DNA of 64,000 nt from a virus. Lineage: Duplodnaviria; Caudoviricetes. The translations under genes and the position numbers were made by a program. The notes beneath the pieces are model-generated. The model was not told the origin of the DNA, did not search any database, and saw only the letters and a program-made list of their open reading frames with translations. Positions 2 through 47,814 of the stretch are shown here, in pieces (positions within the stretch are counted from its first letter, which is position 1; each line of letters opens with the position of its first letter). The stretch spans positions 6,502-70,501 of the IMG/VR virus record IMGVR_UViG_3300020408_000005. One strand, 5' to 3'.

Positions 2-514
2 TCTCTTTGCGTGCCTTACAGCGTCACAAAATACTATCAAATATTTTTGTACTACTGAATAAAAATCATCTCTCGCTTTTTGATCTTTTAATCTAGCAAA
101 TTTACAATGCTGCGAGAAAACATCCTCTGCCCATATAGGTAAAGGTCTCTTGTCTTTAAATTTAAACTTCTCACTTATTACTGATAGTTTAGAATTGAGA
201 TCCACTCCGTGTACAGGAGACACATCGACAATAGCAGCAGTAATAGTTGAAGGCGTTTGGATAATGTCACAACCAAAAATAGGTAAACGATATTCTGGAT
301 CTGGATAAAGAACACAATGTATAATTTCTATTTTGTCTGTGTTTGCTCTTTCAATATGGAGTTTTCTAAGTCCTTTGCATTTCCACATCTCATTGCGTAT
401 AGTCACTTTTTCGTGTTCTATGACACTATGATCTGACTCAATAACTGTGAGGTCAGGCAAGTCACTAATATTCCTGCGGATAAGATCCGCTAACTCATCA
501 CAAAGATTTGTCAC
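2..514 (-). CDS. pcyA: Phycocyanobilin:ferredoxin oxidoreductase, 3'-truncated by the window edge (not in ORF track)
   Basis: Manual translation from GTG at 514 gives MTNLCDELADLIRR...RNEMWKCKGLRKLHIERANTDKIEIIHCVLYPDPEYRLPIFGCDIIQ...AAIVDVSPV...RPLPIWAEDVFSQHCKFARL. It matches the ferredoxin-dependent bilin reductase motifs with the PcyA-type H-x-E, His (HCV) and Asp (FGCD) residues. Confidence 0.9.
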   Translation of the reverse strand, partial: MTNLCDELADLIRRNISDLPDLTVIESDHSVIEHEKVTIRNEMWKCKGLRKLHIERANTDKIEIIHCVLYPDPEYRLPIFGCDIIQTPSTITAAIVDVSPVHGVDLNSKLSVISEKFKFKDKRPLPIWAEDVFSQHCKFARLKDQKARDDFYSVVQKYLIVFCDAVRHAKR

Positions 515-516
515 AA

Positions 517-978
517 TTATTCTGCAAGTGTACCACGTGATCTACGAAGTTGTCGTAGTTCTTCAAAGTCTTTTTGTTTCGTACCTCCATCATAGGGCCA
601 AGCATACCCTTCACCAATCATCTCTTCGTTGAGAGATACATTCCCATCACCAACATATAACCACCCAAGCAAACGACCATACTTACCAACCCCGCCTTTG
701 AGTTCAGTTCGTATAGTAAGTTCAGACTCTCCATCAATAGCACTCTCCAATTTTTCTTTTAACCAGTTAGTAGCATCTATGCCCAATGCTTTTTCTTCTA
801 AATCACGGGTGCGTTTCTCAGGAGTATCAACACCTGCAACACGAACTCGTTCTTTCTTGTATAGATCAAAACCTAGATCAATAGTAACATCAATAGTGTC
901 ACCATCAACTACTCGGTTTATTTCCGTCACTCGGAAGTTGTAGCAACTCTTCCTGCTTGGTGGAACCATTGCTCCCAT
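517..978 (-). CDS. Staphylococcal nuclease (thermonuclease)-like endonuclease
   Basis: RVVDGDTIDV, RVRVAGVDTPE, GKYGRLLG and LNEEMIGEGYA are SNase family motifs. Confidence 0.88.
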   Translation of the reverse strand: MGAMVPPSRKSCYNFRVTEINRVVDGDTIDVTIDLGFDLYKKERVRVAGVDTPEKRTRDLEEKALGIDATNWLKEKLESAIDGESELTIRTELKGGVGKYGRLLGWLYVGDGNVSLNEEMIGEGYAWPYDGGTKQKDFEELRQLRRSRGTLAE

Positions 979-1078
979 CGTTCATCTCCATAAATGCCAT
1001 CCTTAGTATATAGACGATATACCAAGTAACTATTACAACAAGTATTCCTACCATCCAGATAACACCCCAAACAACCAT
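905..1078 (-). CDS. Small single-pass membrane protein, 57 aa (not in ORF track)
   Basis: ATG is coupled to the upstream stop (TAATG at 1080-1076); MVVWGVIWMVGILVVIVTWYIVYILRMAF is a hydrophobic helix; the 3' end overlaps the nuclease gene. Confidence 0.5.
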   Translation of the reverse strand: MVVWGVIWMVGILVVIVTWYIVYILRMAFMEMNDGSNGSTKQEELLQLPSDGNKPSS

Positions 1079-1695
1079 TAGTTCTTATTGTGTACTATTG
1101 TATGGTTTCCATACCACTGTCCGTGTAATGGAAAGTCTCCTGTTTTATTTACCTTCACATTAAATCCTATTGAATATTTTTGATCTCTTGAATAGTTCTG
1201 TGTAGTAGAATGTTCCAACCAAGATGGAAATAATATCAAAGTATCAGGAAATGTTTCTACTGCCATCTCTTGATAAGTAGCAAAACAACTCATTCTTGCT
1301 TGTACAAGTGGACTATGAAAATTAATTAATCCTTGTTCTGGACTTGTCTTATGATAATAACATCCTGACAACTCAAATCCTGGGTGCATATGTTGATTCT
1401 GATTAGCACCTGTTGGGTATATATTTAACCAAGACTCAGGTATATTCCAATTATCGTGACCGACATATTTAATAACACACTCTGCAATATATGATTCTAA
1501 ATTTGGCATTTCATATGCACGAAAAAAATCCCTCCAATGATCTTGCTTGGAAGGATCATCACCGAAGTGAAGAATTAATTGTTCTTTCTCTTGTACATCA
1601 CTAATAACTTTTTCAAGTTCATCCCTTATCTCAGAGTCATCGTGTCTGAATCTTAGAACTGTGGATGGAAATAAATCAATAACGTCAGGTTGCAT
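1078..1695 (-). CDS. 2OG-Fe(II) oxygenase, TIGR02466-like
   Basis: SWLNIY...QHMHP...LSGCYY...LILFPSWLEHS...KYSIGFN, with HxH...H iron ligands. Confidence 0.85.
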   Translation of the reverse strand: MQPDVIDLFPSTVLRFRHDDSEIRDELEKVISDVQEKEQLILHFGDDPSKQDHWRDFFRAYEMPNLESYIAECVIKYVGHDNWNIPESWLNIYPTGANQNQHMHPGFELSGCYYHKTSPEQGLINFHSPLVQARMSCFATYQEMAVETFPDTLILFPSWLEHSTTQNYSRDQKYSIGFNVKVNKTGDFPLHGQWYGNHTIVHNKN

Positions 1696-1717
1696 AATAA
1701 AGTTTCTGTTACACTAT

Positions 1718-3811
1718 CTAGGAACTACGACAGTTCCATTTTTTAAGTGCTAATGCTTTACGAGTTGGTCTACCTTTCTCATCTTTCATAGGTCCTCTCA
1801 TTCCACCCATTCTTTTGCAAAAATTGTTTTGCCTTTTATCTGCCTTACTACCTGGTTTTGGACTACCTGTTACAGGTGCTTTAAGATCTGAACCAGGATT
1901 CTCACGTTCGTAAGACTTTCTTCCTTTTTCATTTAACCCACCACTAGGATTTTTTCCTTCTTTACGTTGCCACGCAGATTCTTTAAAACTTTTTAAACCA
2001 CTTTTAAGGTTACTTGCTTTACCTGTTTTTACGTGACCATACTTAGCAAGATCTTTATGTAGGTCTCTATACTGTGCTTTACTATCACCAGATCTTTTGT
2101 TTGACTGATCCATTCTTTTGTTTTTACCTACAGTTTGGTATCCTTTACCAACACCTGCATATTTTTTTTGATAGAACTCTTCTTTTACCTTAATTTTTCT
2201 AGGGTATGCTGATTTATTTGAATCTTGTCTCATTGCATCAGAATCATATCTTGAAACATAGTCAATTCTATCACTAATTTTTTTTCCTAGTTTTTTCTCT
2301 GCTCTTTTTATTCCTTTATCTCTCGCTTTCTGATACTTACCCATCTTGCCACCGTGAACATAATTTTTATCAAACTTTGCGTGGTAGAGATAGTTTGCAG
2401 TAGTGTTCTTACTTAATTCATCAATCTGTTCTACTTCTTCTTTATATGACTGCACTCTAGTTTTACCAAGAATGTATTTTGGATCATTCTTCATTGCTTT
2501 CTGTGCATCTGCCTCATCATTTTTATTTACATTTATAATTGTCTTTCCACCTTTTTTAGTTTTAGTATGTGCTATATTACCCATTTCTTCTTTTACTTCT
2601 TTTTTCTTCTTAGTTTTCTTAGCAAACGCTGCCATAGGACCTGATGGTTTACCAGTTCCCTTGTAGATACCATAAGAAGTTCCTTCTGACTTCATACTTT
2701 TTATATGTTTTCTGATCTTGTCTGCTTGACTCTTATGTTTAGTTACAGCACTATCCAGTTCCTTTGCAACCGTTTTGAGTTCTTTCTCTTCTTTCTTCAT
2801 CGATGCTTTTGCTGCCTTGATTCTATCAAGAAATGCTTGTCCACCTTTCTCTTTCTTGATCTCATCATCAGTCCTTGCTCTACCCATACTATTATTCTTA
2901 GCGTATAACTTACTCTGCATATCATTAGTGCTAGTAAGTCTACCTCTACCATAACTCTCTTTATACAAATCAATTAATTCATTTCTTGCTTCTCTTTTAC
3001 TAGGTCTACGATACCTACCAACTTCTGTAACTCTACCATCTTTACCATAGTGCCTTCCCTTTGTTCTATTGACGTGATCTGTCATTGCAGTATCTACCTC
3101 TTTAGTGCTTCTAGCATACTGAGTAGACTTATCTTTTAAATTAACTTTTTCTTCTACCTTTTTTGGACCGTATGTGATGCAAGGGTTTTTACCACAACCA
3201 CAATTTTTCTTAGAATCTGGTTTTACTAACTCAACTTCTTCATTTTTCTTACCCACATCCATTATCGCACCTTTACCATACTTATCAGTTATTCTTTTCT
3301 TAACCATCTCAAGTGCTCTAACACTATTCTTTTGCTGCCTTAACATACGTGCTTTTCTTTGAGCATCAGTCTCAGTATTTTTTGTATGGTTAGCAGTGGT
3401 TGCATCAGATTTTTTAGGTGAACTAGGATCACCACCTGCCATTGCAATACTATCTTTCCAATGATCATATCCTTCTTCTGGAATATAACCTTCACTGTTT
3501 ATTCCAAGAACTGCCTTTAATTTTTTACCTGCTGAATATGGATTTTCTTTTGCCTTTCTTTTTCTTGTTTCTGCTTTTATTGATGACATCTTCAAAGCAT
3601 TAGAAAGTTTAGCACGCTTACTGTTGTACTTTGGTTTACCTCTAAACGTTGAATCAATCGCACGAGCAACTCTCAATCTCTTACTAACTGTAGGATCACC
3701 ATATTCTTTTATGATCTCTTCTTTAGTAACTTTAGATTTTTTCTTTTTATCCTCACTATGATCGCAACCACAAGATTCAGAATAGTTTTGAAATGATTGA
3801 AGATTAGTCAT
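1718..3811 (-). CDS. Lys-rich modular protein, probable internal head protein; C-terminal DUF6321-like module
   Basis: 697-aa ORF of basic segments punctuated by x-x-E(E/S/G) sites; C-terminus AWQRKEGKNPSGGLNEKGRKSY...FCKRMGG...ALKKWNC. Confidence 0.65.
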   Translation of the reverse strand: MTNLQSFQNYSESCGCDHSEDKKKKSKVTKEEIIKEYGDPTVSKRLRVARAIDSTFRGKPKYNSKRAKLSNALKMSSIKAETRKRKAKENPYSAGKKLKAVLGINSEGYIPEEGYDHWKDSIAMAGGDPSSPKKSDATTANHTKNTETDAQRKARMLRQQKNSVRALEMVKKRITDKYGKGAIMDVGKKNEEVELVKPDSKKNCGCGKNPCITYGPKKVEEKVNLKDKSTQYARSTKEVDTAMTDHVNRTKGRHYGKDGRVTEVGRYRRPSKREARNELIDLYKESYGRGRLTSTNDMQSKLYAKNNSMGRARTDDEIKKEKGGQAFLDRIKAAKASMKKEEKELKTVAKELDSAVTKHKSQADKIRKHIKSMKSEGTSYGIYKGTGKPSGPMAAFAKKTKKKKEVKEEMGNIAHTKTKKGGKTIINVNKNDEADAQKAMKNDPKYILGKTRVQSYKEEVEQIDELSKNTTANYLYHAKFDKNYVHGGKMGKYQKARDKGIKRAEKKLGKKISDRIDYVSRYDSDAMRQDSNKSAYPRKIKVKEEFYQKKYAGVGKGYQTVGKNKRMDQSNKRSGDSKAQYRDLHKDLAKYGHVKTGKASNLKSGLKSFKESAWQRKEGKNPSGGLNEKGRKSYERENPGSDLKAPVTGSPKPGSKADKRQNNFCKRMGGMRGPMKDEKGRPTRKALALKKWNCRSS

Positions 3812-3954: not shown

Positions 3955-3957
3955 GGA

Positions 3958-4509
3958 TCAACCTCCAACAACTTGTACTTGTTCTACAACTACGTCCGCA
4001 GAACCTGCTGTTAACTTAACGGTTCTTTGTAACATAGGAACGGTGTTGGCAATTACATCAGCATCACTAATTGAATATGCAGAACCTGCACCTGACGCAT
4101 CAATGTCTGTAGTAATTGTTATGTCAGTGACTGCTGTTACTTTCTTACCTGCTGATGCAGCAGATTCAAAGTCTGATCCAAAACCATCTGTGTCACCACC
4201 ATCTATAGTCTGAACAAAATCTCCTACAGCAAAACTGTGACGACCACCTGCTCCTGTACCGTGTCCACCACCTGCAACAGTAAATACTGAACCGTTAGCA
4301 TTAGTTGCACCAGTAATACTAATATTTTTTGATTTACCTACTGAAAGCAAGACTGCTTCCCCTGCTGCAAGTGTAATAGCAGGACCGCTATCGAACTTTA
4401 TGGTTGATGCAGATGCAGCATATGCACGTACAACTCCACTTTTAACGACGATGTAAGCAGTACCTGAACCACTCACTGTCGTAGTATCTAAGACATTTAA
4501 TACAGACAT
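3958..4509 (-). CDS. Hypothetical, probable virion structural protein
   Basis: 183-aa Gly/Ala/Thr-rich beta-type ORF downstream of an ATAAATA late-promoter-like site. Confidence 0.6.
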   Translation of the reverse strand: MSVLNVLDTTTVSGSGTAYIVVKSGVVRAYAASASTIKFDSGPAITLAAGEAVLLSVGKSKNISITGATNANGSVFTVAGGGHGTGAGGRHSFAVGDFVQTIDGGDTDGFGSDFESAASAGKKVTAVTDITITTDIDASGAGSAYSISDADVIANTVPMLQRTVKLTAGSADVVVEQVQVVGG

Positions 4510-4536
4510 CGACTTTTTGACACAAGATTGTTTTTA

Positions 4537-4998
4537 CTATTTATCCTCTTTCTGTTTCTGTTTGAGGAATTTCGCAAGATCAGCAGTGCTACCAACAAAC
4601 ATTGTGTTGTTAGTAACGTTACCTGTTACAGCACCTTTTGGACCTTCTTCTAATTCTTGCATTTTTTTCTGAAGGTCAATTAGTTTATCCGTGGCATCTG
4701 CCACGTTCTTAATAAGATTACCTGCTACCTCATAGGCACGTGGTGAATCTGTTTGTTGTGATAGTTCTAGGATTCCGTCTACCGCTTCCTGTCCCTTGTC
4801 AATTAACGAATACAAATTGCCACGAGTATATTCGTAGTCTTTTTTAATTGCTTCGTTTTGTTTTACAGGTGTATCTTCTACTCTCTGTAATGTAGGTTTC
4901 TCATCTTTAACGATGGATGTCTCTACATCAAGAGCGTCTTCAATACCGTCGAATTTACTCGTCGTTTCCTGTGACTGGGTTTCTTGATTTTCCATCAT
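4537..4998 (-). CDS. gp16: Terminase small subunit gp16 (start uncertain)
   Basis: DYEYTRGNLYSLIDKGQEA...PRAYEVAGNLIKNVAD...NNTMFVGSTADL; directly follows gp15. Confidence 0.88.
   Translation of the reverse strand: MMENQETQSQETTSKFDGIEDALDVETSIVKDEKPTLQRVEDTPVKQNEAIKKDYEYTRGNLYSLIDKGQEAVDGILELSQQTDSPRAYEVAGNLIKNVADATDKLIDLQKKMQELEEGPKGAVTGNVTNNTMFVGSTADLAKFLKQKQKEDK
4538..4545 (-). promoter_or_regulatory. T4-type late promoter (GATAAATA)
   Basis: Near match to TATAAATA about 30 nt upstream of the ATG at 4509. Confidence 0.5.
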
Positions 4999-5752
4999 TG
5001 AATTCACTGAATAGTTCATTAAAACCAAAATCATCATCTGGATCAGAAGTGATTGGGTCTGGTTCGACCGTGTATCTCATTTCACGAGGTGCACTTGTTT
5101 TGCTATCAGGAGCAGTATCGACGATTGCCTTACGTATAAGATCTTTCTCACCGTCGAGAACAGGACCGTAGATATAAGTTTTGCAAGTGAAAGTTATTGT
5201 ATATATGAGAGTTCTTCTTGTTGTATAGTCACCTTCATAATCATCATCATAAGATATTGTATTTAAAACTACTGGAAAATCTTTTTTCTCCTGTAACTGA
5301 TCGTTCAGTTGTACAGAGATATTAAATGTGGGTTGGAAGTATGGAAGTATTTGTTCTAAGATTTGTAAACCGTCATCTTGATTCTTTGAAAGAATTGCTA
5401 ACTCAAAGTCAACGTTGTACGGTACTGGCATAAACGCTTTTTGTAGGTCAGTTCCAACAGCAGTCCTAACTCTCTGTGTTGGGGAGACCTTTCTTGTTGC
5501 GTCGTAATTGAAACCAGAAATCTCAAACGAAATCCTAGGAAGCGTAATTTGAGTCGCATCTTTCCTAGTTAAATCTCCTACTTGTTGGAGTCTTGCTAAA
5601 AACTTTTGTTTAGGTCCATATGCCAATGGCACCTTCATATACTCATATTCCGTAGCATTTTTTTTCCTACGAATTTCTATGTTATTAAACAATGTACCGA
5701 AGGCAATAACTGACTTTCGGAATATTTCATTGTATGTATATGTACCTAACAT
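4955..5752 (-). CDS. gp15: Tail terminator / proximal sheath stabiliser gp15
   Basis: YNEIFRKSVIAFGTLFNNI, KVPLAYGPKQKFLARL, LPRISFE, PVPYN, QILEQILPYFQP. Confidence 0.93.
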   Translation of the reverse strand: MLGTYTYNEIFRKSVIAFGTLFNNIEIRRKKNATEYEYMKVPLAYGPKQKFLARLQQVGDLTRKDATQITLPRISFEISGFNYDATRKVSPTQRVRTAVGTDLQKAFMPVPYNVDFELAILSKNQDDGLQILEQILPYFQPTFNISVQLNDQLQEKKDFPVVLNTISYDDDYEGDYTTRRTLIYTITFTCKTYIYGPVLDGEKDLIRKAIVDTAPDSKTSAPREMRYTVEPDPITSDPDDDFGFNELFSEFNDGKSRNPVTGNDE

Positions 5753-7412: not shown

Positions 7413-7413
7413 A

Positions 7414-13787: not shown

Positions 13788-13817
13788 TGTTTATTAAGGA
13801 CACTATCGCCTCTTTGA

Positions 13818-13825: not shown

Positions 13826-13828
13826 AGC

Positions 13829-17200: not shown

Positions 17201-20200
17201 AAAGGTGTATCATTAGTACGAATATCTTCAATAGTATTCTTAATAACTTCAAGTAGTTTTGGTGATGTATAGAAGTTTACATCAACATTATCAATGAATG
17301 AATAAAATCTTGTATTGGGTTTTAAACGTTGGATCTTAAACGCGATATTTCTAGATCTGATAAACGGAACTACAGTTCTTTCAATAACACGATCACCAAT
17401 ATTTGTACGGTCAATTCTAGGAGTAATACGAGTTCTTAAACCAGATCTAGTTTGTGAACTTGTTGTATTACTTACATTAAACGTGATCTGTCTAATACCA
17501 TTTCCACGCATATGTAAGGTAGAAGAAGACGTTGTTGTAGATGACCAGTTGGTTCTCCAAGAATTCCATTGCACAGGAGCAAATCCAGTATTGGTATCAG
17601 CACCACTTGCAACCATTGCTGCTTCATAACTACCTTCCATATTTACAACTCTATCAGGAGCACGACGTGTATCTACCCAATCATCAGATGATGGATATAA
17701 GTCAAGACGACCAATATATGCAAATACGTTAAATGGGTTTACATTCTCAACTCTTGAAGCATAAGGTTGAACAATAAATCTTTTTTCTGTATAAGGTCTT
17801 GTAATTGTACCTGTATCGTGAACAGTAACACCACTAGATTGTGTAGTGCTAAACTGTAATGATACGTTTGTAGTGTAGTGAGAAGGACGTAAAATACCTT
17901 CTTGGAAATCTAACGATGCACCAAAATCTTCGTGAGTAGTATCTGTAGAATCAAAACTTGTAAAGTTATCTACAAGGAATCCGTTTTTAAATTTATCAAA
18001 TCCATCACTATCTTTTATAGGTAATGAACTTGTTTCTAATTCAAGTAAACTTAAAGAAGTATAGTACTCTAGTTGGTCAACACGTTTTTCAATAGCACCG
18101 ATGTCACGCATAGTGAATCTACGGTTGTTCTCTCTTGAAATTCTTACATCTTCTGGAGAATATCCATATGGTCTATGAACCATAGTTGCTAGTAACATTG
18201 CATTATCAATGTTTGCAGGGATTTCATTTAGTTCTCCAGATATACCTTTAACAACTTTAAATTGTTGCTGATCTGTTAAGAATACTTTATCTACTCTACC
18301 AAGATAGAAATCGTAGTCACAACGGAAATCAGATTCTGGTTTAGGAATATCGATAATAGTAGCATTGTTTGAAACGCCTCCTGACGCGAAACTGCGGTCT
18401 TTAAAGTCTAACGATGCACAGTTAACAAAGTATGGTGCACCGACGGTGCCTGATCCAGATAATACTGGAGTTACACCTGGACGGAAATCAAGAACATCTC
18501 TAAGTTCTTTTGCAACACCGTTCTCAACGTACTGTGGAATGTCATCATAATCTACACCAACATATGATTCAGATGCAAAATAGTCACCAGTTGCTTCGTG
18601 AACAAACCTATTAAATACAACTTTTAGTTTTCTTAGTGGTTTAGTTGATGATGCAAATCTAATTAATTTTGAAATATCATAGTAATGTCCTTGTTGGTTA
18701 GGATCTAAGAAGAATGACTGTGTTATGTTCTTACTACCATTGTCAATAGAACCATCAGCATCGTTGATGATACCATTAATTACAACATTGTTAGCATTGA
18801 AACCTTGTACAGTCTCACCTAACTGGAAGAACTTATCATTCTCATAAACAAAATGACAAACATATGAAACTGAGTTGAAGTTTACAACACGTGCTTTTGC
18901 CTTAGATGTTTGTCCTTCAATAATTGTACCTTTCTGGAAGATGGTAGCATCCTGCATTGTGATGAAAGGAATTTTTGCAGAAAGTTCATCTAATGATTCA
19001 TATACTGCGTGTACTTTATAAACATCAGAAGAACCTAGAGATATTTCTTCATCTTCAATACGTGTACCATATAATGAACCATATGAAAGACCATACTTAG
19101 GAGCATCAGAAGATATATTTGTTTTCTCAATCTTCATCACTTCCATTTCGGTAGCGTTCTTTAATTTCTTCTCTGCTTGGTTTTTAGATACAGAGGTAAT
19201 TAAACGACAAGATGTAACACCTGTTAAACCAGAAACTGTTAAAGATGTTCTAGGAGTACCTGTGCTGTTAAATGATAGATTAGGTTCAATATCAATCAAA
19301 GTACCTGCTGTAGGTGCTAATTCTACTAACTGATAATGATCCTTATCATATGCAAGGAACTGTTCATCAGCAGGTAGAGATATTGTAAAGTCATTAGATC
19401 CAGTAACTGTTATATCATCAAAAGATCTTGCAACTATAACTGATTCATCTGTGATGCTCTTAATAGATTCTTTAGGCATCTCAATTAGAAGATCAGCAGT
19501 TTCTTTATCATATACTTGTGCTCTACGACGAACCATAAATGAGTAATCACCATTACTCAAACCACTTGCAGTACCACTCGCATTTAAAGCAGATGTAATA
19601 TTATTTGTTATTGTGTTTGCAGATATAGGATATATCTTATCCATTGTAAATGTGTTCACACCGTTTGGTGTTAGAACATCTCCAGGACGTAAATCAAGAG
19701 TAAAGTTTGAGTTTGTACCTGTAAAAGCAGTACCATTAATATTAAAGTTAACACCACTAATAATAGTTTCTTGATCAAGAAGTAGATCTCCTGCAAATGT
19801 AATTGCATTTGTATCTGGATCTCTACCAGTTACACCTTTAGCATCTGTAATTTGGAAACTAAATGAGTTTGTGAGAGTTCCAATTTCTACACCATCTTTT
19901 TCTATAACTTCTCCTGCACGGAATGTACCAAATACTTGATAAACTTTGAATACAGTTTGTGCTGATGTAGCATCTACCACAAATGCTTTTGCTCTAGTTG
20001 TTCTACCACGAATAACAGCACCTTGTCCCGCAGTTACTGCTTGAGACATTTGGAATGTAGTTAGTGGTTGTATATCAAAAATATATGTCTTGAATACAGT
20101 TGAAGAAGCAGTTACAGTTGTTCCACTATGATATTCATATGCAGCACAACGTGCGTATGCTATAACTTCACCCGCTGCGTTTAATGATCCACCTGGGGCT

Positions 20201-23035: not shown

Positions 23036-23043
23036 TATTTATA
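23036..23043 (-). promoter_or_regulatory. T4 late promoter TATAAATA
   Basis: Exact consensus upstream of gp8. Confidence 0.8.
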
Positions 23044-26623: not shown

Positions 26624-26631
26624 TATTTATG
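26624..26631 (-). promoter_or_regulatory. Late promoter-like CATAAATA
   Basis: ATAAATA core about 25 nt upstream of the ATG at 26599. Confidence 0.55.
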
Positions 26632-27999: not shown

Positions 28000-28007
28000 T
28001 ATTTAGT
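28000..28007 (-). promoter_or_regulatory. Late promoter-like ACTAAATA
   Basis: TAAATA core overlapping the gp7 stop, immediately upstream of the ATG at 27994. Confidence 0.4.
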
Positions 28008-31000
28008 CGTCGTCGAAGATTTGTGTAGGTGTGAAGTTGTCAACCGTTGTTGCACCGATGTTGACGGTAAGAACAGCAGCAGTTGATAGAACAGGGATTG
28101 CACCGTTAGATGTGATACCAACACGATATTCATCATTTGTATCTGCCTGTGTAGTTCCAGGAGTTTCGTATGTAGCACTGGTTGCTCCACTGATATTATT
28201 CCAACTATTTGTTCCATAATCTTTCTTCTGCCACTGATATGAAAGAGTTCCGTTATTAACGTTAACTGCTGAACCCATATATGGATGATTGCCACATACG
28301 TAATTAAGAGTAGCAGGAGCATCTGATGCAACTGTGATGCTGACACTACGTGTTGTAGCAGCAGCAAATCCTGCTGCGTATGTTGCATAATCTGCAACTT
28401 GATTTCCATTAAGACGATATACAACACCAGTCTCATATCTTTCAGTTCCACCGTATGCGTCTGCATTCTCACTGAAGTAAATTGCGTGAGTAGTATTAGA
28501 TGCGTCATTTTGATTGAACTGATAAGTTGCTCCACGAACAAATGTAAGTGTTGGTGCTTCAGTATTTTGTGTAAACTGACCTCCTGTGAGGTAGTATCCT
28601 TTACCAGATCCTTGATTGTAGTAAGGATGATTTACAGATTTACTATCAACTAAAACTGAGTAAGCAACAACATTAGATATTGTTACTGTTGCTGCAACTT
28701 GGAAGATAGCAGTTTGACCTTGGTTAACAGTAATATTTCTAGGTGCTTCAGTGATTGTTATAAAGTTCTCAATAACTCCTGTTCCACCAGTCTCAGGTAT
28801 AAAGTTAGGATCGTAAATATCAATACCACCATTTAATGCAGGTCCTGTAGGTCCTAAGAAATCATCTGCAACAGTTGTGTTTGCAGTAATTGCAGGTAAT
28901 GTATAACCTTGACCTGCGTTCTTAACATCAATCCTTGCAACACCGACAAGTGCTTTAATACGTCCACCAAATCCTGTTGAAGATATAACATCAACTTGTG
29001 GTCTTGTACTATAACCATCACCAGAGTTTGTTAATATCGCATTAGTAATACGTCCCTTCTCAATCTCAGCAAGTGCAGAAGCATTACGTCCTTTAACTGC
29101 TCCACCGTACTCAAATGTAATTAGAGAGTTAGATGATTCAATAAGAGCAACTGTTCTTGTTTCTTCTTCACCATCAATTCTAAGTTCATCACCTGCTTCA
29201 ATAGGTGGTACAACTGTTGCTGCGATAACGTCAACATCAGAACCAACATAAGAGAATGCAACGAAGGTTGAACCTGCACGAGGAACTTCAGAGAAGATAA
29301 TTCTAGAACCAACAATTTCAAAACCAATTCCAGGTTCCTGTATAACACCATTTAACTGGCATATAATATTATTCTCAGGTAAGATTGTATTTGACTGTAC
29401 ACCATCAGTTAGAGTCAATGAGTAGAATACTCCATTTAACTTCAAGTTGAATGAGTTACGTAATGAGTCAAAGTCGAATGATATATCATCTAATTGTCTT
29501 AACTTACCTTTATATACACCGTGGAATGTTGATCCTATAGCAGGTGCTTCAGTAAATTGTATATTATCTGAGAATGCAGTAAATGCGTAATCAGCACCAG
29601 GTGGTTGTAAGATACCATTTACAAAGATCATCATATGTCCTGCGGGATCTGGGAAGTATTGTGTACCATTTCCTTGAGTTAGTTTGAATGCTTTTTGTAC
29701 ACCATCAAATCCTCTAAAGAATCTACGTACTCTACCTCTCAATGATCTAGCAGATGAACAAGCACCTCTGAAACCATTATCTCCAATAATTTGTGAGTTC
29801 TTCTGGAATGTTCCTTGTGTTCCTTCTAGATGTAAAACAGCACGAGTACCAAACTGTGTAATCTTAGCAATCTTACCATATGCAGTTGTATCTGTTATTG
29901 TGACTGCACCAATAGTTGTATATACAGATGGGAATAGAGTTCCGACTGGTACTTTTGCTAATTGATATTGTGTATTACTTGCAATATCGCTTATTGTCAC
30001 ACCTTCTGGAGTTCCAGTTTCATTTGCAACAAATACATAATTGGTGTTTGTATCAATCTCAGTAACAGTCACTGTCCAACCAATACTAATACCACCAGAT
30101 TGAATTTGTAACACGTCACCAACGTTAAATGTATCACTAACTCCAGTATCAGTAATTAATGCAGTATATGTAAGTCTTGTAATTTGCCTACCGTGTACAT
30201 ATTCACCGAAGTTAGGTAATGTAACGAACGATTCAATCTCAATAATTTGATCAGTAACAGATCCATAGATAACGTCTTGGGGTTTAAACTCTCCAGTTAC
30301 TGTGGAGATGTCGTAAGTGATTCTACCACTCTGATTATCAATTAGAGCACCATTATTGTTTCTAACAATCAAGGCAGTTGCTTTAGATCCAGTATCTTTA
30401 GAGAAAAACTTATCAGTTGCAATAAATTCACCCTGACGGAAGTTAACAAGAATCCTATCGTGCTCGCCAACATATGTACAGGTACCACCAGATGTAACAC
30501 CTTCAATAATGTCACCTGCTGTAAATGTTCCATTATAATCAATTAGTTTAATATATGTCTCGTTATCGGTAGCAAGAACTTTACCAGTATTTGATGTAGC
30601 ACCTTGAACAACAACCATCTCACCATTCTGAATCTTAATACCAGTTCCACCACCTTGTGCAGAGAATGTATTACAGGTCATATACTTTGCCTGATACATA
30701 ACGTCTGCTAAATTATCTTCCATACGAACTATCTGAGCAGTAGCACCAGAGGTTCCACCATAGATAACATCAGCAAGGTTGAAACCTGCTTTGATTGGTG
30801 TTGGTACATCACGTGTTCCAAAAGTTGTAGGTACACGATCTACACCTGGATCTACACTAACAACAAGTGTATGTAATTGTGATGGAGTTCCTGGAGTTAG
30901 AACTATTGGTTCTCCATCAATGTATTCTGTAAGAACTATTTGAGTAGGTGTTGAATTAGGATGGATATAGTAAACTGATCCGTCTAGTTCTGCAATATTA

Positions 31001-34000
31001 GATCCAAGAACAATATACTCAACTCTGTCATATGGTTCAAAGTTATTAGCAACGTTTATAACTCCATTAGAAACAGCAACACCTGCATCAAACTGTGTTC
31101 TTAAGTATGTTGTTGGGAATTCTGAGTATTGTAATGCAACTAATATTAAATGGAATAGTTGATATAACTTATGGCAAGCAGTTGCAGTAGGACGTAATTC
31201 TCTATCAGGATTAGTTCCATCAATAGTGTAAAGAGGTTGGTTAGCAAATGTGCCAGGTTCGGGAGCAGTTCCTTTCAATATATGATCCATCAAGTCTCTA
31301 ATCATCCTTGCGTGATAAAGAAGACGAGTTCTGAATAAGTTTGGATATGCTACGAAATTGCCATCAGCGTCAAACCAAGAATTGATGAGTTGCAGTGTTC
31401 TAGCATTACCATTTGTAATGAAATCATATACAATCGCTTTCTGTATTGGTTCAGCAAACGAAGCATCTCCTGCATAACCTGGATATTGACTTAATGTACT
31501 TTCATATGATTCTAATCTAGTATATGTGTCATTGTACATTAACAATCTTGCAGATTGCTTATACATCTCTGTACCACTTCCAAGACCGTGAAGAAGTATT
31601 TTGAATAGTACGTGTGCAGCAGATGTAACATCGTAACAAGTTCCACCTTTATATACAGTGTTAGTAGTAACAGGTGCAGTTCTAGTTATAGTTGCAAGAT
31701 GACTTCCATTACCCGCTGCTGCTGTGGTAATAGTATTAATAAGTATCTCCCAAAGGGTATTAATGGCAGAACTCTGTGTGGTGCAGTTTCCGTTACCTGC
31801 TGAGTCGTAAGTTATAGTTATGTCACGTCTAATAGCACGTTCACCTGTAAGTGGCCATTCTAGTGGTAGTGTTCTTGTTATACCAGTTAAGTATGCTGTA
31901 GGATTGCTTGTATTTGAACTATCAAAGAGATTAATAGGAATACCCATCAATGAAGCGATAGATGCTGCTTCGTTTACACAACGTGTTTGAGCACCACCTG
32001 TATATACAGATACTGCATTTGCCTGAGCACTTACGAATGAGTGAGCGTAGTTACCTGCTGTTGTAGTTCCTACAAATACTGTAAATGTATTTGTGGTTGT
32101 AGCAGTAATCGGTAAGTTTGCATTTGCAGCAGGGTCTGTGATACGAGGGTAACTATGATTTGTAGCACCACCATCCATAGTGCAAGTAAATACAAGACTA
32201 TTTGTTTTGATTCTAATGCTGTCATTTGTTGTAAATGTATGTCCATTAGATGTAATTCGTAAGTTACCTGATGTTGGGAAATATTCTACATTTGTAGGAG
32301 TTATAGTTGTATTACCAGAACTTTGATCAACGGTAATTGTTCCGTCATATACAGCATTACCTTCAGTTACACCATTTGTAGTAATAATTTCCTGTCTCAT
32401 TACTTGAGTAGCAATATCTCTTGCTTCTTGGAAGATATATTTAACTTCTGCTGCTTGGTTGCTGATATGTTGTATAGCATTACCAACTGTGATGTAGAAC
32501 TCACTTGAATACCACATACGGTTGTTACCACCGTGTTTTAAGTTAAAGACTAATGCTTCAAGTAAATCTACAACGTCATCAACACAAGACTGATAATCAT
32601 AACCACCAGAGAATGCCAATCCTGGGTATTGTGACATACCACGACCAACAGCGGTTGTAGCAATAAATCTTATATTATTCTCAATCTCATTTGCAGCATC
32701 ATAGTAACCATTAGTTGTAGCATTTTCATAATAATCATCTCTTGGTGCTGCTTGTCCTAATCCACCTGTTACTCCTTCATCCTCATAGGGAGTAAACCCT
32801 AAACGGTTTCTGATGGCGAGTATGCACATATCACGTGCTAACTTAAAGGCATAAGTTGTTTCATCAGATTGAGCAGTTACGTGACTTAATCCCAAGTCTG
32901 AATTCAAATATAATGCAGCAGCATCATATGATTCACTATTACCACCAAATCTTAAATCGTGTGCTATAGATTCGATAATATCAACAATATCATCTTCACA
33001 ATTAACCTTACCACCTGGAACTCTGAAACCTTTAGATTGTGCAAAAGATGTCTTAGTTAAAATATCAACTGCTTCACCCGCAATAGTTTTAGCATTCTGT
33101 ACTAAAAGATTAGCAGCATCAAGATCTCTATCAGATCCTGTATATGCTTTAGGATCTATTGTAATAGTCTCATCACGATATACAGGTTCATCTGTGTATA
33201 ACATCTGATAGTAATCAGAGAAATCAAGAGCAACTTGAGCAGGGTTCTCATTTCTACCAATCAATAAACCTTGTATTGCTTTTTGTGCTAACTTCTTAGC
33301 ATATTCAATCGCATCAATCATCGCAAGCAATTCATCTTCAATATAATTGATGTTAGTCTCATTATCGAGATAACTATCAATCATTGCTTGAGTTTCAAAG
33401 TTACCACCTGTAACTAAGTCACCTGCAATGGCAGGAAGTATATGATCTCTAATATCTCTTACACATTTTGCTCTATTAGGTATTGTTAGTTTATTTACTG
33501 TTGAGAAACCAACTTGTATTTGATATTTGTTCTCAATGTAGAATACTGATTCATCAGCGATTGCTTTTCTATTAAAGTAAATTAAATCAGCACCATCTCT
33601 AAATCTATGACCTGTAGGTCCGATAACATCTAGTAGATCATCTACAAGAGTCATAATATCATCTTGTATTGTTTGAGATGCAGGAGATGAGAAGTAATTA
33701 GGAACACGAACCTTAGTTGAGTATGTTCCTTCTAAATTTGTCTCATCTAATGTAATTACATCAATACAAAGTTTTGCAACTTCTCTCCAAGTATAGATTG
33801 ATTGTAATTGCTCACCACCAATATGTTGTAAGGCACCAGATCCTTCAATGTAAGCACGACCAACAATAGTTGTTTGGAAGTTACCACCTGATATAAGGTC
33901 ATCAATAATAGCAGGTATAATATATGATTTTGTATCTCGTAAACAAACATTTGATCCATAACCACTCATACCACCATCACCAGGGATTACGAAATCAGGG

Positions 34001-37000
34001 TATCTATATTTAAGACGACCAACTGCTTCTTCAGCGATGTAATCAATATTTTTCTTTATTATATCAGCACACAATCTATATTCTTCACGACTTAGATCAA
34101 CACCTTCAGTAGTAAGTTCAGAACGCCATAATTCAACTTCATCAGCGTTAGCAGTAGATATTATGTGATTAACGTATGTTGCATATACTGCACTCTTCTC
34201 CATAGGGAATGGTGCTTCGCCAAGAAGTGCGAATGATACGTTTGTACTATCGTTGAAGATAATAGGGGGAGTAAAACTACTATTGTACTGGGAGATTCCT
34301 TTGTAGATTACAAGATTATCAATCCAACCATTGAAAGGATTACCATTATTCCATCCTGCACCAACAGTGATCTTACTATTTGCGTTGTAATTATTTGTAT
34401 CAGTATATGTGCCAACCTCTGAACCATTTACATATAATTTAGTGACACTTGTAGAACGAGATACTGCAATATGATACCAAGTATTGATTGTAGTAATAGC
34501 AGAACTAGCAGTAATTACATCACTTGCTCCAATGGATAAACGAAGTGACTGACCAGACATTAATATACCTAGTTTAGCATCAGATGAAGATTCTCTAAGG
34601 TCAATAAGTCTCTGTACACCAGTAACTGAAGCAGGACGTATCCATAACTCCATTGTATAGTCACCATTAGCAGCATCTGCTCCATCACCAAATAACACAG
34701 CGTTACTTGATGGGAAAGTAACATATGAACCAGATCCAGTAAATCTTAGTGAACCAGTATCAGTTTTAAATGTTAATTTATCTTGAGATACGTTTGCATA
34801 TGTAAGTTTAGAGTTGGTTATTAATTCACCTGCTTGTAATACGCCACTGATTTGTTTTGAGAAGATCCACTTGTTACCTGCATTAGATCCTATGACATCA
34901 TATGTTGCACCAGATGTAATTGCTCTTATAGTATCACCAAATCCAAATTGTCCACCACTTGATTTGTCTTGGTAGGCGTGTTTTGCACAACGTAAAGTCT
35001 CACCATCTACAAAAGCGTAAGGAGGAAGAACACGAGGTACATTAGTAATTGACCATTGATATGTTGCAGGATCTCCACCTGTAGGATCTTCTAGAGTATC
35101 AGTAATGATTCTCATAAAGGATGTTATAGCGTTTGCCTGATTAACACAACTATTAGTGTATCCCGCATATGCAGCAGAAGGTGCAGTCTCAGTTACTGCT
35201 GCTTCAAATGCTGCTACTGTTCCTGGAGATGCAGTTGATCCAAGATTAGTAATCAAAATATTCATTAATGTAGTAATTGCTGATGCAACTGCCTGACAAG
35301 TTGGATTTGCAGGATCAGCAGTTATTGTTAGATCTTTTACTTGATTCCAGTTATGAGATCCTGCTTTAGTCCAAGTATTGTTTCTCATTACCTCAATGGC
35401 AATATCTCTTGCCTTAGTAAAAGCATTTACAATAGTATCTCTATCACCAGATGTTACACCATACTGTAGAGTTTTCTTAGTTGCTTTATAAACAAAGTTA
35501 TTACCACCGTGTGCTAAGTTATAAACCATCGCTTCAAGAACATCAACAATATCAGATAAACAATGAACATCTCCACCTGATACGTTATATCCTGGATTTT
35601 GTGTTTTAGCATAATGTAATGCTTCATATGCAATAAACCATTTATTAGCAAGAATTAGATCTCTTGCGTCACCGTGACTATTGCTTATAACAGCAAACTC
35701 TGCGGTAATAGTAGGATCTCTGTATTGTGGTAAATTTGTTGTATTAGTATTAATTACTTCATTACGAATACACTGAATTGCTAAATCACGTGCTTTATTA
35801 AAGGCATAAATTGTTTGTGCAACTTCACCATCAACGTGATATATTGCATTACCTTGTACATATGTGTTAGCAGCATCCCAGATTTCTGAGTTGCCATCAA
35901 CTTCTAATTGATATGCAACGATATTTAAAATATCTACAATATCATCTTCACAATCTCTATCTCCACCTAATGATGGTACTGTAAATGATGGATAGAATGC
36001 TTTCATCAATCCAACTGCTTCTTCAGCAATGAATCTATCATTCTTTCTTATTAAAACAGCAGCATCAAATGAACGTTGATCGTCTACACCTACTAATGAA
36101 GCATTATCATAGTAGATTTGTTTATTACGTATTGAGTCACCTGCTGCAAATTGTGATCCTGACAGATAATTATACCTAATTTCTTGGTTTCTTACCTCTT
36201 CAAAGTCTAAGAAGTCTTGGTTATTAGCAGTTCCTGCCTCATATAATTCTTCTGGATTGATAACTGTCTCAGAAATATTGTCTAAGATAGTATTTGGATA
36301 TGTAATTGAAGGAACACGTTGGAAAATAAGACCAAAGAATGATGATGGAGGTGATAAATCAACAGTATCAATGATTTGTTGTGATACATCGTCTGTGTAT
36401 GGTGCAATTACAGTAACTCTTGCAGCAATTTTAGATGCAGCAGAGTAAATTGTATCATTAAATCTGATATTAAATTCACCAGTTTCAAATGCAGCAGTAC
36501 CAGATGTACGAGAAACAACTAAATTAGCATCTACAACACCATCTCTAAGGTTATTTTCTTCAATAATTGCAAAATCACCTTGTAAATTTGTAATTCTTTC
36601 ACCTTGCTCATATATTGTCTTACTTGTTATACCATTTACAGCACTTAATACACCATCAAATCCAGTAGATGATGCTAAAACATTGTCATTTATTTGGAAA
36701 CTACCATTCTGATCAATAATATCGATATAATCTACACCAGTATCAATAACAGTTGCAGTTCCTTCATTCTGTAAAGATCTTACAGTCTTACCTGTTGTTG
36801 GGAAAATACCAGATGTTGTACTAAATGTAAATCTTGTGATATTAATTTGAGAGAATGTAAGATTTCTAAACTTAATTCTTGAAGGTGCTTTAGGTGGTTC
36901 AGAAAATACGACAGATGGACCAGATGTTGTGAATGCAGTTCCAGGAGATTGAGCAACACCATTAATAAGAATTAATAATTGATCATCAGTTGCAGTTACA

Positions 37001-43000: not shown

Positions 43001-46000
43001 GTATCTGTGTCTTGGTTAGGTGTACGATCAATATCAATATCAACATCTTCATATGGATCACGGAATCTAACAACATCAAGAGGAATATTTGTTTGCACAG
43101 CATCTTGACTGTAGTTCCAAGTATCAGGTTGTGAGTATAGTTGTGGACCACATACATATGGAAATACAGGTAAACCTGCTTCTGATGCGTCTATAGAAAC
43201 AAAGTAAGCGTAAGTACCTTCAGGATATTCAGGTGTTTTACAAAAACGTCCATTGTATTGGTCTAAATCACCTGCTTGGAAAACATACTCATAGTCTTCT
43301 ATGTAAGTTCCTGCGGGTTTGTCTGATAGTAAAGGTCCATCAACACGAACTGGATTTGGGTTAGTGGCAGAATCAAATAATAATATTGGTTTGATTCTGT
43401 AAGATGATACACATCTCTTAATACCAGATGATTGATCAGCAGCATCAATATAACCATATGGTCCGTATATTGGGTTTCCATCAAATGCCCAACCAATAAT
43501 AGGAGAATGTCTTAATCCAGATGATAGTTCTCTAAGAAGACCTGTTGAAGGATCTTTAAATACGTTATCACCAAGAACATAACGTAATTGTTTGGGATCT
43601 GATAGGTGAGCATATTCACCACCATATTGTGTATTATATCCTGCAAAAACATAACCACGAGCAGGGTCTACTAATCCTGATAGTTCAGTTTCTAAGTTTT
43701 GTGTCCACTCAAATACGTTTGCAGTAAATGATGCACCTTGACCTATAGATTCGCAACGAATAGTTGTAAGACCTGTTGTATATCCTATACCTCTGTTTTC
43801 TACAGATATACTTAATACTTTACCTTTATCTTCACCAAATGTTCCAATAGTTGCTTTTGCAACAGCACCATATCCATCTCCATTAATAATAATTTTAGGT
43901 GGAGAAGTATATCCATTACCAGATGCAATAATAGCAATAGAAACTATACGACCATTAATTATAATTGGTTGTGCAACTGCACCTTCACCAGAATTTAATT
44001 TAATATTTGGAGAAGATGTATAACTTGATCCTGCTGTATCTACGCTAATAGATTGAATAGGACCTCTTACCTCGGCAGTAGCAGTAGCACCTGTTCCATT
44101 GCCTCCTGAGATGCTTACAGTGGGTGCTGAGGTATATCCTTGACCAGGTGTCTCAACAAGTACTTTACTTACAACTCCGTTTGTAATAACAGCAGTCGCA
44201 GTAGCACCAAATCCACCTCCACCAACAATAGAAACTAAAGGAGATGCTGTATATCCAGAACCACCTGCTGTAACATCAACACTGAAGAGTGATCCATCTA
44301 CAATAACACTAGCAGAAGCACCTGATCCACCACCACCAGATATTTCAATAAGTGGTTTAGATGCAGCGTCATATCCTGTACCAGAATTTACAATATCAAC
44401 ACTTGTTATTCCACCAAACTTAGTCTTAGTTTGAGACTTATAAGACCAAACAGAAACACCATTTACCCAAGCACCAATAGGACCAAATGATAAATCATCA
44501 CGTCGTGATACAGTCTCTACAATTCTAGGAAATCTACTTAGTTTTCTTTGGTTTCCTGGGAGTAAAGCAGACCCAATGAACGGACCAACTTGATAGTTTG
44601 GAATACCTGTTGTAGCAACATAAGAGTAATTTGCGTTGAAGAACGTATTTTGTACATTGGTTGTAAACTGATTAATTGAGTTATTAATTGCTTCTTCTGT
44701 TGATTTACCTTTATTAAGGTCAACAGACATCAAGATATTACCTTGAGGTGCATTAGGTGCAGGGGCAGCAATCTGATATGAGAAAACAGTGTTACTTATA
44801 CGAGATGTTACAGCAAATGTACCGTTAAAGATTGTTGGGTTTGCACCGTATATTGTTACAGAGTCACCAACAAGAAGACCGTGGTTATTTGTAGTATATA
44901 CAGTTGCAGTTTGATTGTTAAGTCCACCTGGTTCAATATTTGTTACAGAGATTAATTTCTTAACATTATACAACCAAGATGTAATTCTTTGATCTGTAGA
45001 TGAAGATCCAAGAGATGCAACATTTAATTTATCACTAGGAAGATAATATGAACCAGTATCGGTAAGAACTGTTCCTGTTGCTTCAGCAATACCAAGAACA
45101 CGTAATTTTACTTCAGTATCTTGTCCTCTATTGATATAACAGAAAATATCAGAGTATATTGTTGTACCTGCATCCCAATCTTCTACAACACCGTTTTTAG
45201 AACGTGTACACTCAATAAACTGGTTTAATGATTTTTCTTTGTATTGTATTCTTTCGTTATCACCCATAATGATGATACCGTTCCTTTCTGGCCACCCAAT
45301 AGTAGAGTCAACAGTAATAATAGACTCGGTTTCTGTTAAAGGTTCTACAAGTGTTGTTTTATAAGGTATTGTAAATTTTCCTTCTAAAGTTTCTTCAGAT
45401 ATTGACAATTCATAGATTGTTCCAACACCAGTATTGATAGCAATAACGTTTTCAACCAAACAAACCGCATTTCCAACACTTGTATCTACATCATCTGCAT
45501 ATTGGAATAATTGAGAGTCTAATATATCAACAGGACTTCCACTTATCAATTCTACACGAATAATTGTATCAACAGACCAAGTTGCAGCAGATGGTTTAAT
45601 TAATTCATCTTTTGGATATGAAACATCAACATTTTCTGAAAATAAGACTTTAAATAAGTACTCTGTGGCAGTTTTTGTACCTTTAGACACATAGAAGTCT
45701 TTTATTGTCTTAATAATCTGTGGAGCATTGATTTTAGTGTAATCAATATCTGCATCAGGTAAGAACTGGTTTACAAAACGTTCATATAGTGTTCTAGAGA
45801 ATAAGGCATCAAGATTCTCAATAGTGCTTCCAATTTCGTGAGATGATTGAATACTTTGTGCTTCATTTGTAAATACTTGATTTCCCCTAATATCATATGA
45901 AGAAACACCTGATACACCTCTCTTACAATTTACAAATTGAGATGGTTGATACTCTGAACCGTGTGAGTGTACTGTAAAACCTGTAACTTCTTGGAATCCA

Positions 46001-47814: not shown

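Follow-up and report, generated by a model that had tools for sequence, protein, structure and literature searches.

Can a virus particle carry domains taken from the pigment antenna of its host, and do such domains still hold pigment? The question is raised by a 64,000-nucleotide stretch of DNA (hereafter, the window), which covers bases 6502–70501 of the 70.5-kb IMG/VR record IMGVR_UViG_3300020408_000005, a T4-like cyanomyovirus genome that is about 40% complete. Its minus strand holds an open reading frame (ORF) of 6603 amino acids (aa), gp7, with repeats that resemble phycobiliproteins. A first-pass annotation of the letters alone had proposed that the product of a phage pcyA gene is made late, together with the virion genes, and loads a bilin onto this protein. 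According to our analysis this is partly supported: the virion does possess an acceptor-like domain, which is only weakly linked to pcyA and better linked to the CpeT-like lyase gene.

The 6603-aa ORF is gp7 by its position (synteny with gp6 and gp8). The syntenic gene of P-SSM4 encodes 7312 aa and is annotated as gp7, a virion structural protein, and PHROGs gives the window ORF the name “virion structural protein / tail fiber protein,” while the Pfam Baseplate_wedge match (E 0.0094, 15.9 bits) lies below the cut-off. The giant gp7 genes of P-SSM2 and P-SSM4 were read in 2005, in the passage devoted to them, as tail fibres fused to gp7 (PMC1079782). The protein contains 39 Cys residues, six of which stand in C-x-x-D at the equivalent place of six repeats of about 130 aa; in the alignment of the repeats, the N, I, A, C, D, L, G, and N columns are invariant. 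As had been noticed at first pass, they form two clusters with a LamG domain between them, which divides the repeats into two and four (Table 1). The motif occurs at seven sites in gp7 compared with a shuffle mean of 2.6, and this number was reached in 31 of 2000 shuffles; the bare count is weak evidence, and the case rests on the profile matches. The decayed seventh copy is present in 11 related IMG/VR loci as well: in 15 such loci, close relatives (71–99% identity) obtained with a single-protein search, C-x-x-D is found in 79 out of 90 domains, the remaining 11 being the decayed copy. By its position, gp7 is probably a baseplate-anchored giant fibre protein; it has six phycobiliprotein-derived copies and one decayed copy.

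The phycobiliprotein family PF00502 matches gp7 at 25.7 bits, above the curated cut-off of 22.2 (E 1.2e-5, aa 4576–4632), and the match spans profile positions 27–84, ending exactly on the Cys. Three profiles of the repeats were compared with 177,635 distinct PDB sequences. The profile of the six window repeats gave 100 matches with E<=10, the best 60 of which are all phycobiliprotein-type chains; the best match is phycoerythrin alpha (2.1e-5), whose bilin Cys and Asp87 are aligned with the Cys and Asp of the repeat. The 36-row profile reached 1.1e-6, and the best 60 of its 150 matches with E<=1 are again all phycobiliprotein-type. For the 30-row profile, which includes distant family members, all 47 matches with E<=0.01 are phycobiliproteins, phycocyanin alpha being first; the family consensus dkCkrDvgyildavayDllygG aligns to it with Cys on the bilin Cys. 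The alignment register is kept at N35, C84, R86, D87, and G100–101, and all six window repeats have Cys and Asp on the bilin positions Cys84 and Asp87, although outside the bilin-site residues the repeats are only 15–25% identical to phycobiliproteins. A member of the wider family described below, P0142, matches PF00502 at 44.8 bits (E 1.7e-11); a phmmer search with the same protein returned nothing from PDB at E<=0.001.

The fold agrees with the sequence. An AF2 model of repeat 3, built from a shallow 12-row alignment of window and IMG/VR rows, consists of five helices (pLDDT 72.2, pTM 0.69). All rows listed by Foldseek against PDB for this model are phycobiliproteins, derived biliproteins, or designed bilin binders, with TM of 0.65–0.71 for the well-superposed rows. 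VIA-align, which is independent of Foldseek and was run on 48,161 representatives, placed ten bilin-binding chains first (Z from 11.8 to 9.6), among them phycobiliproteins (11.8, 11.7, 11.5), the bilin domain of ApcE (11.2), and photocobilins (10.9 and 9.9); haem globin sensors did not exceed 8.4. As helical models can reach such Z values by chance, the fold result supports the sequence result and does not prove it. The N-terminal X–Y helix hairpin, which makes the alpha–beta heterodimer, is absent: the matches start at profile position ~24–27, and the repeat period of 130–160 aa leaves no room for it. The domain thus looks like a relative of the core of the phycobiliprotein family rather than a canonical subunit.

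Could chance, or convergence on a generic globin-like helical repeat without a common origin with phycobiliproteins, produce this likeness? We consider it very improbable. The weak Foldseek E-values, the ease with which helical folds give high Z, and the 31 shuffles out of 2000 that reached the C-x-x-D count would all fit such an origin, but it does not account for three independent profiles that return only phycobiliproteins among the matches listed, for the Pfam match above its curated cut-off in the window and the much stronger one in P0142, for the precomputed PF00502 hits on many database homologues, or for the preserved register. We conclude that the gp7 repeats are true phycobiliprotein-like domains descended from phycobiliproteins; they match the alpha subunits of phycocyanin and phycoerythrin most closely, and each repeat corresponds to the five-helix globin-like core, lacks the X–Y hairpin, and keeps the bilin-site Cys84 and Asp87.

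The window repeats are the visible tip of a large domain family that extends through the cyanomyoviruses. When 1.84 billion cluster representatives were searched with a family profile, 1170 proteins passed E<=0.001, of which 802 also passed E<=1e-10. The 150 top-ranking proteins among the 1170 are 730–6982 aa long and hold up to 35 matched stretches each; among the 1460 repeats of these proteins that cover the Cys column, Cys is kept in 1417 (97%), Arg stands at +2 in 1362 (93%), Asp at +3 in 1449 (99%), and Lys at –1 in 789, the most frequent site words being KCKRD, KCRRD, and KCARD. By these counts the C-x-R-D site appears almost invariant across the tail-fibre/baseplate repeat family, and the window repeats, with Arg in only two out of six, seem to form a derived branch. 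The proteins are otherwise very poor in Cys. Those that carry the repeats are annotated as virion, tail-fibre, or baseplate proteins, and many homologues named “hypothetical protein” hold a precomputed PF00502 hit, so the likeness sits unremarked in the databases. We found no paper tying a cyanophage virion, tail fibre, gp7, or baseplate to a phycobiliprotein or bilin, in a search that left many journals outside its reach.

Several features of the family are recorded here in their own right. Some metagenomic proteins (P0002 and others) have 20–35 repeat copies in 4000–6400 aa, more than any isolate examined, and no copy lacks the Cys; in the first two of these copy-rich proteins, it is present in 31 out of 31 and 32 out of 32 repeats. 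The contigs of P0142 and P0215 (2.2 and 1.4 kb) bear, in NCBI metagenome-assembled genomes (MAGs), the labels Nanopelagicaceae and Minisyncoccia, respectively. We rejected an actinobacterial assignment of P0142, as this protein is 65–70% identical to tail fibres of S-RSM4 and S-WAM2; both contigs seem to be cyanophage fragments placed in the wrong bin. In gp7, another short helical element with a Cys adjoins the repeats (aa ~4160–4240 and ~5270–5560; window ~31100–35300). It reads roughly D-L-T-I-T-A-D-P, a few residues, C, and then an amphipathic helix, and in S-PM2 it stands in for the first helices of some repeats.

The distribution of the repeats was examined by tblastn against 50,697 phage records with three queries. 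Window repeats 3–6 matched 368 records, whose names begin with Synechococcus (289), Cyanophage (60), Prochlorococcus (18), and Marine (1); P0017 and P0142 matched 360 and 356 records, respectively, with names of the same kinds. In these records, the matches fall in features annotated as baseplate wedge initiator, short tail fiber, tail protein, or virion structural protein. A gp6 search, by comparison, found homologues in 2374 T4-like records, mostly phages of enterobacteria, Vibrio, Aeromonas, and Acinetobacter. Apparent repeats in phages of Rhizobium, Pseudomonas, Acidovorax, and others were rejected, as these matches vanish once the LamG domain leaves the query. Two Kyanoviridae of heterotrophs, Melnitz and HTVC008M, gave no repeat match at E<=1 with two profiles. 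In every search made, the family is confined to phages of bilin-making hosts.

The named phages differ in which protein carries the repeats and in the state of the Cys. In S-PM2, the repeats sit not in gp7 but in two other giant proteins, d088 and d218. Counting the repeats that cover the site within the stretches fetched, Cys is present in all of them in the window phage (6/6), S-PM2 (9/9), P-HM2 (5/5), P-HM1 (5/5), Syn9 (3/3), S-WAM2 (7/7), S-RIM32 (5/5), S-SM1 (3/3), Syn33 (3/3), S-CREM1 (5/5), and S-ShM2 (4/4), and in part of them in S-WAM1 (6/7), P-TIM40 (6/8), S-RIM2 (3/4), and S-SSM5, Syn19, P-SSM7, and P-RSM4 (2/3 each). P-SSM4 gp7 (L018) has Cys in none of three repeats, with Q, K, and V at the site (aa 4514, 5900, 6065). 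P-SSM4, which lost Cys in all three repeats and kept both pcyA and cpeT, offers a natural test case.

Among bilin-related genes, the repeats track the CpeT-like lyase gene rather than pcyA. Of 21 Kyanoviridae genomes, 16 contain repeats together with CpeT (PF06206) and five contain neither (P-SSM2, S-SM2, S-SSM7, Melnitz, and HTVC008M), with no discordant genome; two CpeT assignments come from a single weak stretch each, which passes only together with its neighbours in frame. A bilin reductase (PF05996) was found in five out of nine genomes tested (P-SSM4, P-TIM40, P-HM1, P-HM2, and P-SSM2) and is missing from four, all of them repeat-bearing (S-PM2, S-WAM1, S-RIM2, and Syn9), whereas P-SSM2 has a reductase and no repeats. 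Co-occurrence of bilin genes with repeats is thus seen for cpeT, concordant in all 21 genomes, and is not supported for pcyA/pebS. The tblastn search with S-PM2 CpeT matched only 113 records; the family is too divergent for BLAST, and these counts were left out of the comparison. In S-PM2, S-WAM2, and S-RIM32, a giant “short tail fiber” gene that carries the repeats is preceded at 1.3–1.8 kb by cpeT, and the interval contains nothing but tRNAs and a small gene of the 2OG oxygenase or HNH type; hit coordinates suggest the same layout in S-CAM1, S-CAM3, S-CAM4, ACG-2014i/j, and S-RIM44. We regard the co-occurrence of repeats and CpeT as suggestive, not strong.

A further line of evidence comes from adsorption. 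According to PMC6628666, darkness prevents the adsorption of P-HM1 and P-HM2 but not that of P-SSM2, and S-PM2 adsorption is described as light-dependent and independent of host photosynthesis (citing Jia et al., 2010). Repeats with the Cys occur together with cpeT in P-HM1, P-HM2, and S-PM2, and both are missing from P-SSM2. Thus, in the four myoviruses that can be paired the phenotypes agree with light acting through a repeat-bearing fibre.

Is bilin still attached to the conserved Cys of the repeats when virions are assembled in the infected cell? The three bilin-site residues are strictly kept in domains that are otherwise only 15–25% identical to phycobiliproteins and in proteins very poor in Cys, and a kept bilin site is the best explanation of the pattern. 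Taking this together with the fold, the host restriction, the lyase link, and the adsorption phenotypes, we lean tentatively toward binding, the likeliest of the readings, as something that stops just short of probable. We know of no bilin measurement on any virion, and a number of further points weigh on the same side of the scale, against binding. When the repeats are scanned singly, only one out of six touches PF00502, below the cut-off (E 0.0035, 17.7 bits). The sequence matches are limited to profile positions ~24–101, the first two thirds, and the C-terminal remainder is matched by fold only. The Arg86 position holds Arg in two window repeats and D or S in four. The AF2 model is of middling confidence, with the loop before the Cys below pLDDT 50; Foldseek gave no PDB row with E<=0.001 (best 0.068), and in VIA-align helical models may reach Z of 13–14 without kinship. 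In the gp6 tree, P-SSM2, S-SSM7, and S-SM2 form one clade (99/98) and Melnitz and HTVC008M another, so the repeat/CpeT pattern needs only two changes, i.e., about two independent contrasts. Since genomes of T4-like cyanophages are collinear, the cases with cpeT next to the fibre gene are non-independent and may reflect inherited order. Neither cpeT nor haem oxygenase was found in the window contig and its four relatives, which are 40–63% complete. P-SSM4 keeps pcyA and cpeT with Cys-less repeats, so these genes must have another use there, and the phenotype match comprises four myoviruses only. Finally, T-type lyases are described, in the relevant part of one paper, as serving Cys153/155 of beta subunits and not the Cys84-type site (PMC10452541).

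A domain captured from a phycobiliprotein gene of the host could instead have become a bilin-free scaffold, i.e., a compact helical spacer, oligomerisation, or receptor-contact module in which C-x-R-D is kept for folding, inter-subunit contacts, disulfides in the extracellular particle, or another ligand. The loss of the X–Y hairpin and of part of the C-terminal helices fits this explanation, as does the loss of Arg86 in four out of six window repeats; the three Cys-less repeats of P-SSM4 show that the domain persists without Cys, and proteins with up to 35 copies resemble rod building blocks. We know of no coloured cyanophage preparation, and our search found no paper linking virions and bilins. 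On the other hand, a scaffold leaves unexplained why Cys, Arg, and Asp are retained in 97%, 93%, and 99% of 1460 divergent repeats at just the three bilin-contact positions, why the family is restricted to phages of bilin-making hosts, and why it is concordant with a lyase gene; moreover, with one invariant Cys per repeat there is no partner for an intradomain disulfide. We rate such a scaffold, the main rival to bilin binding, as a serious possibility, albeit a rather doubtful one.

If the repeats do bind bilin, the most likely course of events would be as follows. While virions are assembled late in infection, phycoerythrobilin or phycocyanobilin from host or phage enzymes would be joined to each repeat through a thioether linkage; the attachment could be autocatalytic, as for ApcE, or aided by the phage CpeT-like lyase. 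The virion would then bear on the order of tens of bilins on the distal baseplate and fibres. In a more speculative step, absorbed light would alter the conformation of the fibre and so gate adsorption. The conserved site suggests a virus particle that carries a light-absorbing pigment. The boldest extension, that most marine T4-like cyanophages are pigmented, with CpeT-loaded bilins on fibres and baseplates acting as a virion photoreceptor that gates adsorption to light, we consider unlikely. If it were true, this would be the first virus particle with a light sensor of its own, and it would explain why bilin and lyase genes are found only in cyanomyoviruses.

The narrower proposal, in which the phage expresses pcyA late, along with the virion genes, for the specific purpose of loading gp7 with bilin, fares worse, and we think it distinctly improbable. 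The gene itself was correctly recognised and placed: it is a genuine pcyA, downstream of gp16 in a minus-strand run. Its N-terminal part at window positions 2–514 matches Fe_bilin_red with E 1.9e-33 (the full 229-aa gene in the contig, 1.3e-47), and it passes the NCBIfam PcyA equivalog NF002760 (213.3 bits, cut-off 206), with PebA and PebB models scoring far under their cut-offs. Its place is among the structural genes, after gp16 and before gp17, and an ATAAATA at 4544 lies upstream of it; the same arrangement is found in a 93%-related 112-kb contig, and Cys is present in all six repeats of the window phage. The shared strand, however, says little, because an ORF survey puts every credible gene in the 64 kb on the minus strand. 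As for the late-promoter-like sites, the one at 4544 does stand upstream of the run leading to pcyA, but such sites are sparse overall: ATAAATA occurs seven times on the minus strand and once on the plus strand, and TATAAATA is found on the minus strand only at 23043 and 13825.

The position of pcyA is, moreover, that of an insertion island of five genes, and the endonuclease–pcyA pair, separated here by 2 nt, is covered by a single DNA match in P-RSM1 as well (record ~132 kb). The pair has the appearance of a mobile cassette that was inserted between gp16 and gp17. Elsewhere the reductase is far from gp7: by more than 50 kb in P-SSM4 and P-TIM40, and pcyA or pebS is distant from gp7 in P-HM2 too. 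Four out of nine genomes have repeats without a reductase and one, P-SSM2, the reverse, and P-SSM4 combines pcyA with Cys-less repeats. We found no paper on the expression timing of phage bilin genes, pcyA included; PMC5082946 contains no mention of pebS, ho1, or cpeT. The role of pcyA as a specific supplier for gp7 is thus not borne out, and it would be one optional bilin supplier rather than a dedicated partner. The suggested search of the rest of the genome for ho1 and cpeT was negative in the contig (~40% complete); the cpeT of the nearest relatives is located ~42 kb upstream of gp6, a place that would fall past the end of the window contig.

Small 2OG-Fe(II) oxygenase genes recur near these loci. 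One (1078–1695) adjoins the pcyA cassette, another lies at window positions 55058–55597, and in S-PM2 (155763–156344) and S-RIM32 (19909–20508) such genes stand directly upstream of giant repeat-bearing fibre genes; a role in fibre modification is conceivable.

The repeats bear on two questions, namely, why phages, including those of Prochlorococcus without phycobilisomes, carry bilin genes and a lone CpeT lyase, and why some cyanomyoviruses adsorb by light independently of host photosynthesis. A bilin-site domain on the fibres is a concrete candidate acceptor and a candidate sensor. If bilin is bound, this would be a new use of the antenna fold and a virus particle that absorbs visible light, with a bearing on the diel dynamics of infection in the ocean; if not, the repeats remain a clear example of how an antenna gene of the host was made into a structural virion repeat.

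The claim that two virion proteins end in cupredoxin domains could be upheld in part. The C-terminal domains of gp7 and of the gp9/10-like protein are homologous (31% identity), and both contain the motif C-x2-H-x2-M preceded by a His. The Pfam and PDB matches stay below significance: the gp9/10-like domain matches Copper-bind with E 0.16, below the cut-off, and a nitrite reductase by PDB phmmer with E 0.95, and the gp7 domain has no match in either search. The cupredoxin identity of both therefore rests on the motif and is only partly confirmed. At the gp7 C-terminus (28006–28700), the cupredoxin-like domain seems to be inserted in an immunoglobulin-like domain, the flanks resembling its two halves.

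Table 1. Features of the window discussed in the text. Positions are window coordinates; aa positions are those of the encoded protein.
Feature	Position	Strand	Details
gp6	47835-49922	-	Precedes the giant gp7 ORF in transcription
Giant gp7-like baseplate/fibre protein, 6603 aa	28003..47814	-	Single ORF between gp6 and the gp9/10-like and gp8 genes
PBP (phycobiliprotein)-like repeat 1	35728..36126, aa 3897-4029	-	Site C3955-E-D-D
PBP-like repeat 2	35338..35736, aa 4027-4159	-	Site C4085-L-S-D
LamG / concanavalin-like domain	34300..34731, aa 4362-4505	-	Pfam Laminin_G_3, E 2e-21; between repeats 2 and 3
PBP-like repeat 3 (repeat folded)	33721..34119, aa 4566-4698	-	Site C4624-L-R-D; PF00502 match aa 4576-4632
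PBP-like repeat 4	33241..33639, aa 4726-4858	-	Site C4784-V-R-D
PBP-like repeat 5	32776..33174, aa 4881-5013	-	Site C4939-E-D-D
PBP-like repeat 6	32362..32760, aa 5019-5151	-	Site C5077-V-D-D
Degenerate seventh repeat	31255..31587, from aa 5410, end approximate	-	hmmsearch 28.1 bits; gap at the Cys column
Cupredoxin-like domain, gp7	28249..28629, aa 6396-6522	-	Motif C6507-G-N-H-P-Y-M
gp9/10-like baseplate protein, 559 aa	24920..26599	-	T4_gp9_10_N, E 3e-10
Cupredoxin-like domain, C-terminus of gp9/10-like protein	24923-25282	-	Motif C546-T-I-H-S-S-M
gp16 small terminase subunit	4537..5037	-	gp17 only after five inserted genes, outside the window
Late-promoter-like ATAAATA	4538..4544	-	29 nt upstream of the DUF7243 start
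DUF7243 gene	3958-4509	-	Inserted between gp16 and gp17; opens the run leading to pcyA
697-aa DUF6321 protein	1718-3811	-	Inserted between gp16 and gp17
2OG-Fe(II) oxygenase	1078-1695	-	Inserted between gp16 and gp17
SNase-type endonuclease	517..978	-	Pfam SNase, E 1.3e-11; 2 nt upstream of pcyA
pcyA, N-terminal 171 codons	2..514	-	Runs off the window; complete (229 aa) in the contig

In the order of transcription, the genes are a 2OG-Fe(II) oxygenase, a 1104-aa protein, gp25, gp6, and the 6603-aa ORF, followed by a YHYH protein, the gp9/10-like protein, a 623-aa protein, and gp8; a 2397-aa DUF4815 protein, a 2037-aa Mtd_N protein, neck proteins, gp15, and gp16 come next, then the five inserted genes (DUF7243, the 697-aa protein, a 2OG-Fe(II) oxygenase, the SNase endonuclease, and pcyA) and, past the window edge in the contig, gp17, gp18, gp19, and gp20. 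In the gp6 tree, the window clusters with S-WAM1 and P-TIM40 (support 100/100). A YHYH domain occurs twice, within gp7 (aa 1396–1542, window 43189–43629, E 4.6e-31) and in a separate 455-aa protein directly downstream of it (26627–27994, E 3.4e-32). The region upstream of the baseplate genes weakly matches the ArdA antirestriction protein (57682–58221, E 5.2e-5, below the cut-off) and NlpC/P60 peptidase (55976–56395, E 9.2e-6).

Several known systems resemble the gp7 repeats, each in a different respect. T4 gp7 and the giant gp7 fusions of P-SSM2 and P-SSM4 occupy the same slot between gp6 and gp8 as the window gp7. T4 gp7, however, has none of the phycobiliprotein-like repeats, and neither has the giant gene of P-SSM2; in Melnitz the gp7 position is taken by an 896-aa gene. 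The passages on the giant genes in the 2005 and 2010 papers mention no phycobiliprotein likeness (PMC1079782, PMC3037559).

The phage bilin genes ho1, pebS, pcyA, and CpeT occur in the same virus family as the repeats and are usually read as support of the host antenna; as stated in the part of PMC10452541 dealing with them, they are found only in cyanomyoviruses, apart from one podovirus with pebS. In the corresponding part of the 2010 paper, the role of phage pcyA/pebS was called “a mystery” and that of cpeT “unresolved” (PMC3037559). We found no proposal of a virion acceptor for these genes in the literature searched.

CpcA and CpeA (PF00502), the top matches by both fold and sequence, have in common with the repeats the globin-like helical core and the register of Asn35, Lys83-Cys84-x-Arg86-Asp87-[IV]-Gly-Tyr, and Gly-Gly after helix E. 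They are ~160 aa long and form free alpha–beta pairs, whereas the repeats, of ~115–130 aa, have five helices, no X–Y hairpin, and a shorter C-terminal part, and stand as 6–35 tandem copies inside virion proteins of 700–7000 aa; Arg86 of CpcA/CpeA is lost in four out of six window copies, and the bilin on the repeats is predicted only. Photocobilins, which are light sensors, and the “bacterial fluorescent protein,” both with globin-like domains that bind bilin and come from outside the cyanobacteria, show, like the repeats, the phycobiliprotein-type fold outside antennae, and 8u0f chains turn up in both the sequence and the fold match lists of the repeats, with photocobilin Z as given above; unlike the gp7 repeats, these are cellular, soluble, non-repeated, and non-virion proteins. 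A parallel in architecture is the core-membrane linker ApcE, in which, as in gp7, a phycobiliprotein-like domain lies inside a very large multidomain protein (VIA-align Z to the repeat 3 model of 11.2 for the bilin domain and 9.6–10.0 for whole chains). ApcE attaches its own bilin without a lyase, a possible precedent for autocatalysis in gp7; it has one such domain, with an inserted loop, in the core of the phycobilisome, whereas gp7 has many copies in an extracellular particle.

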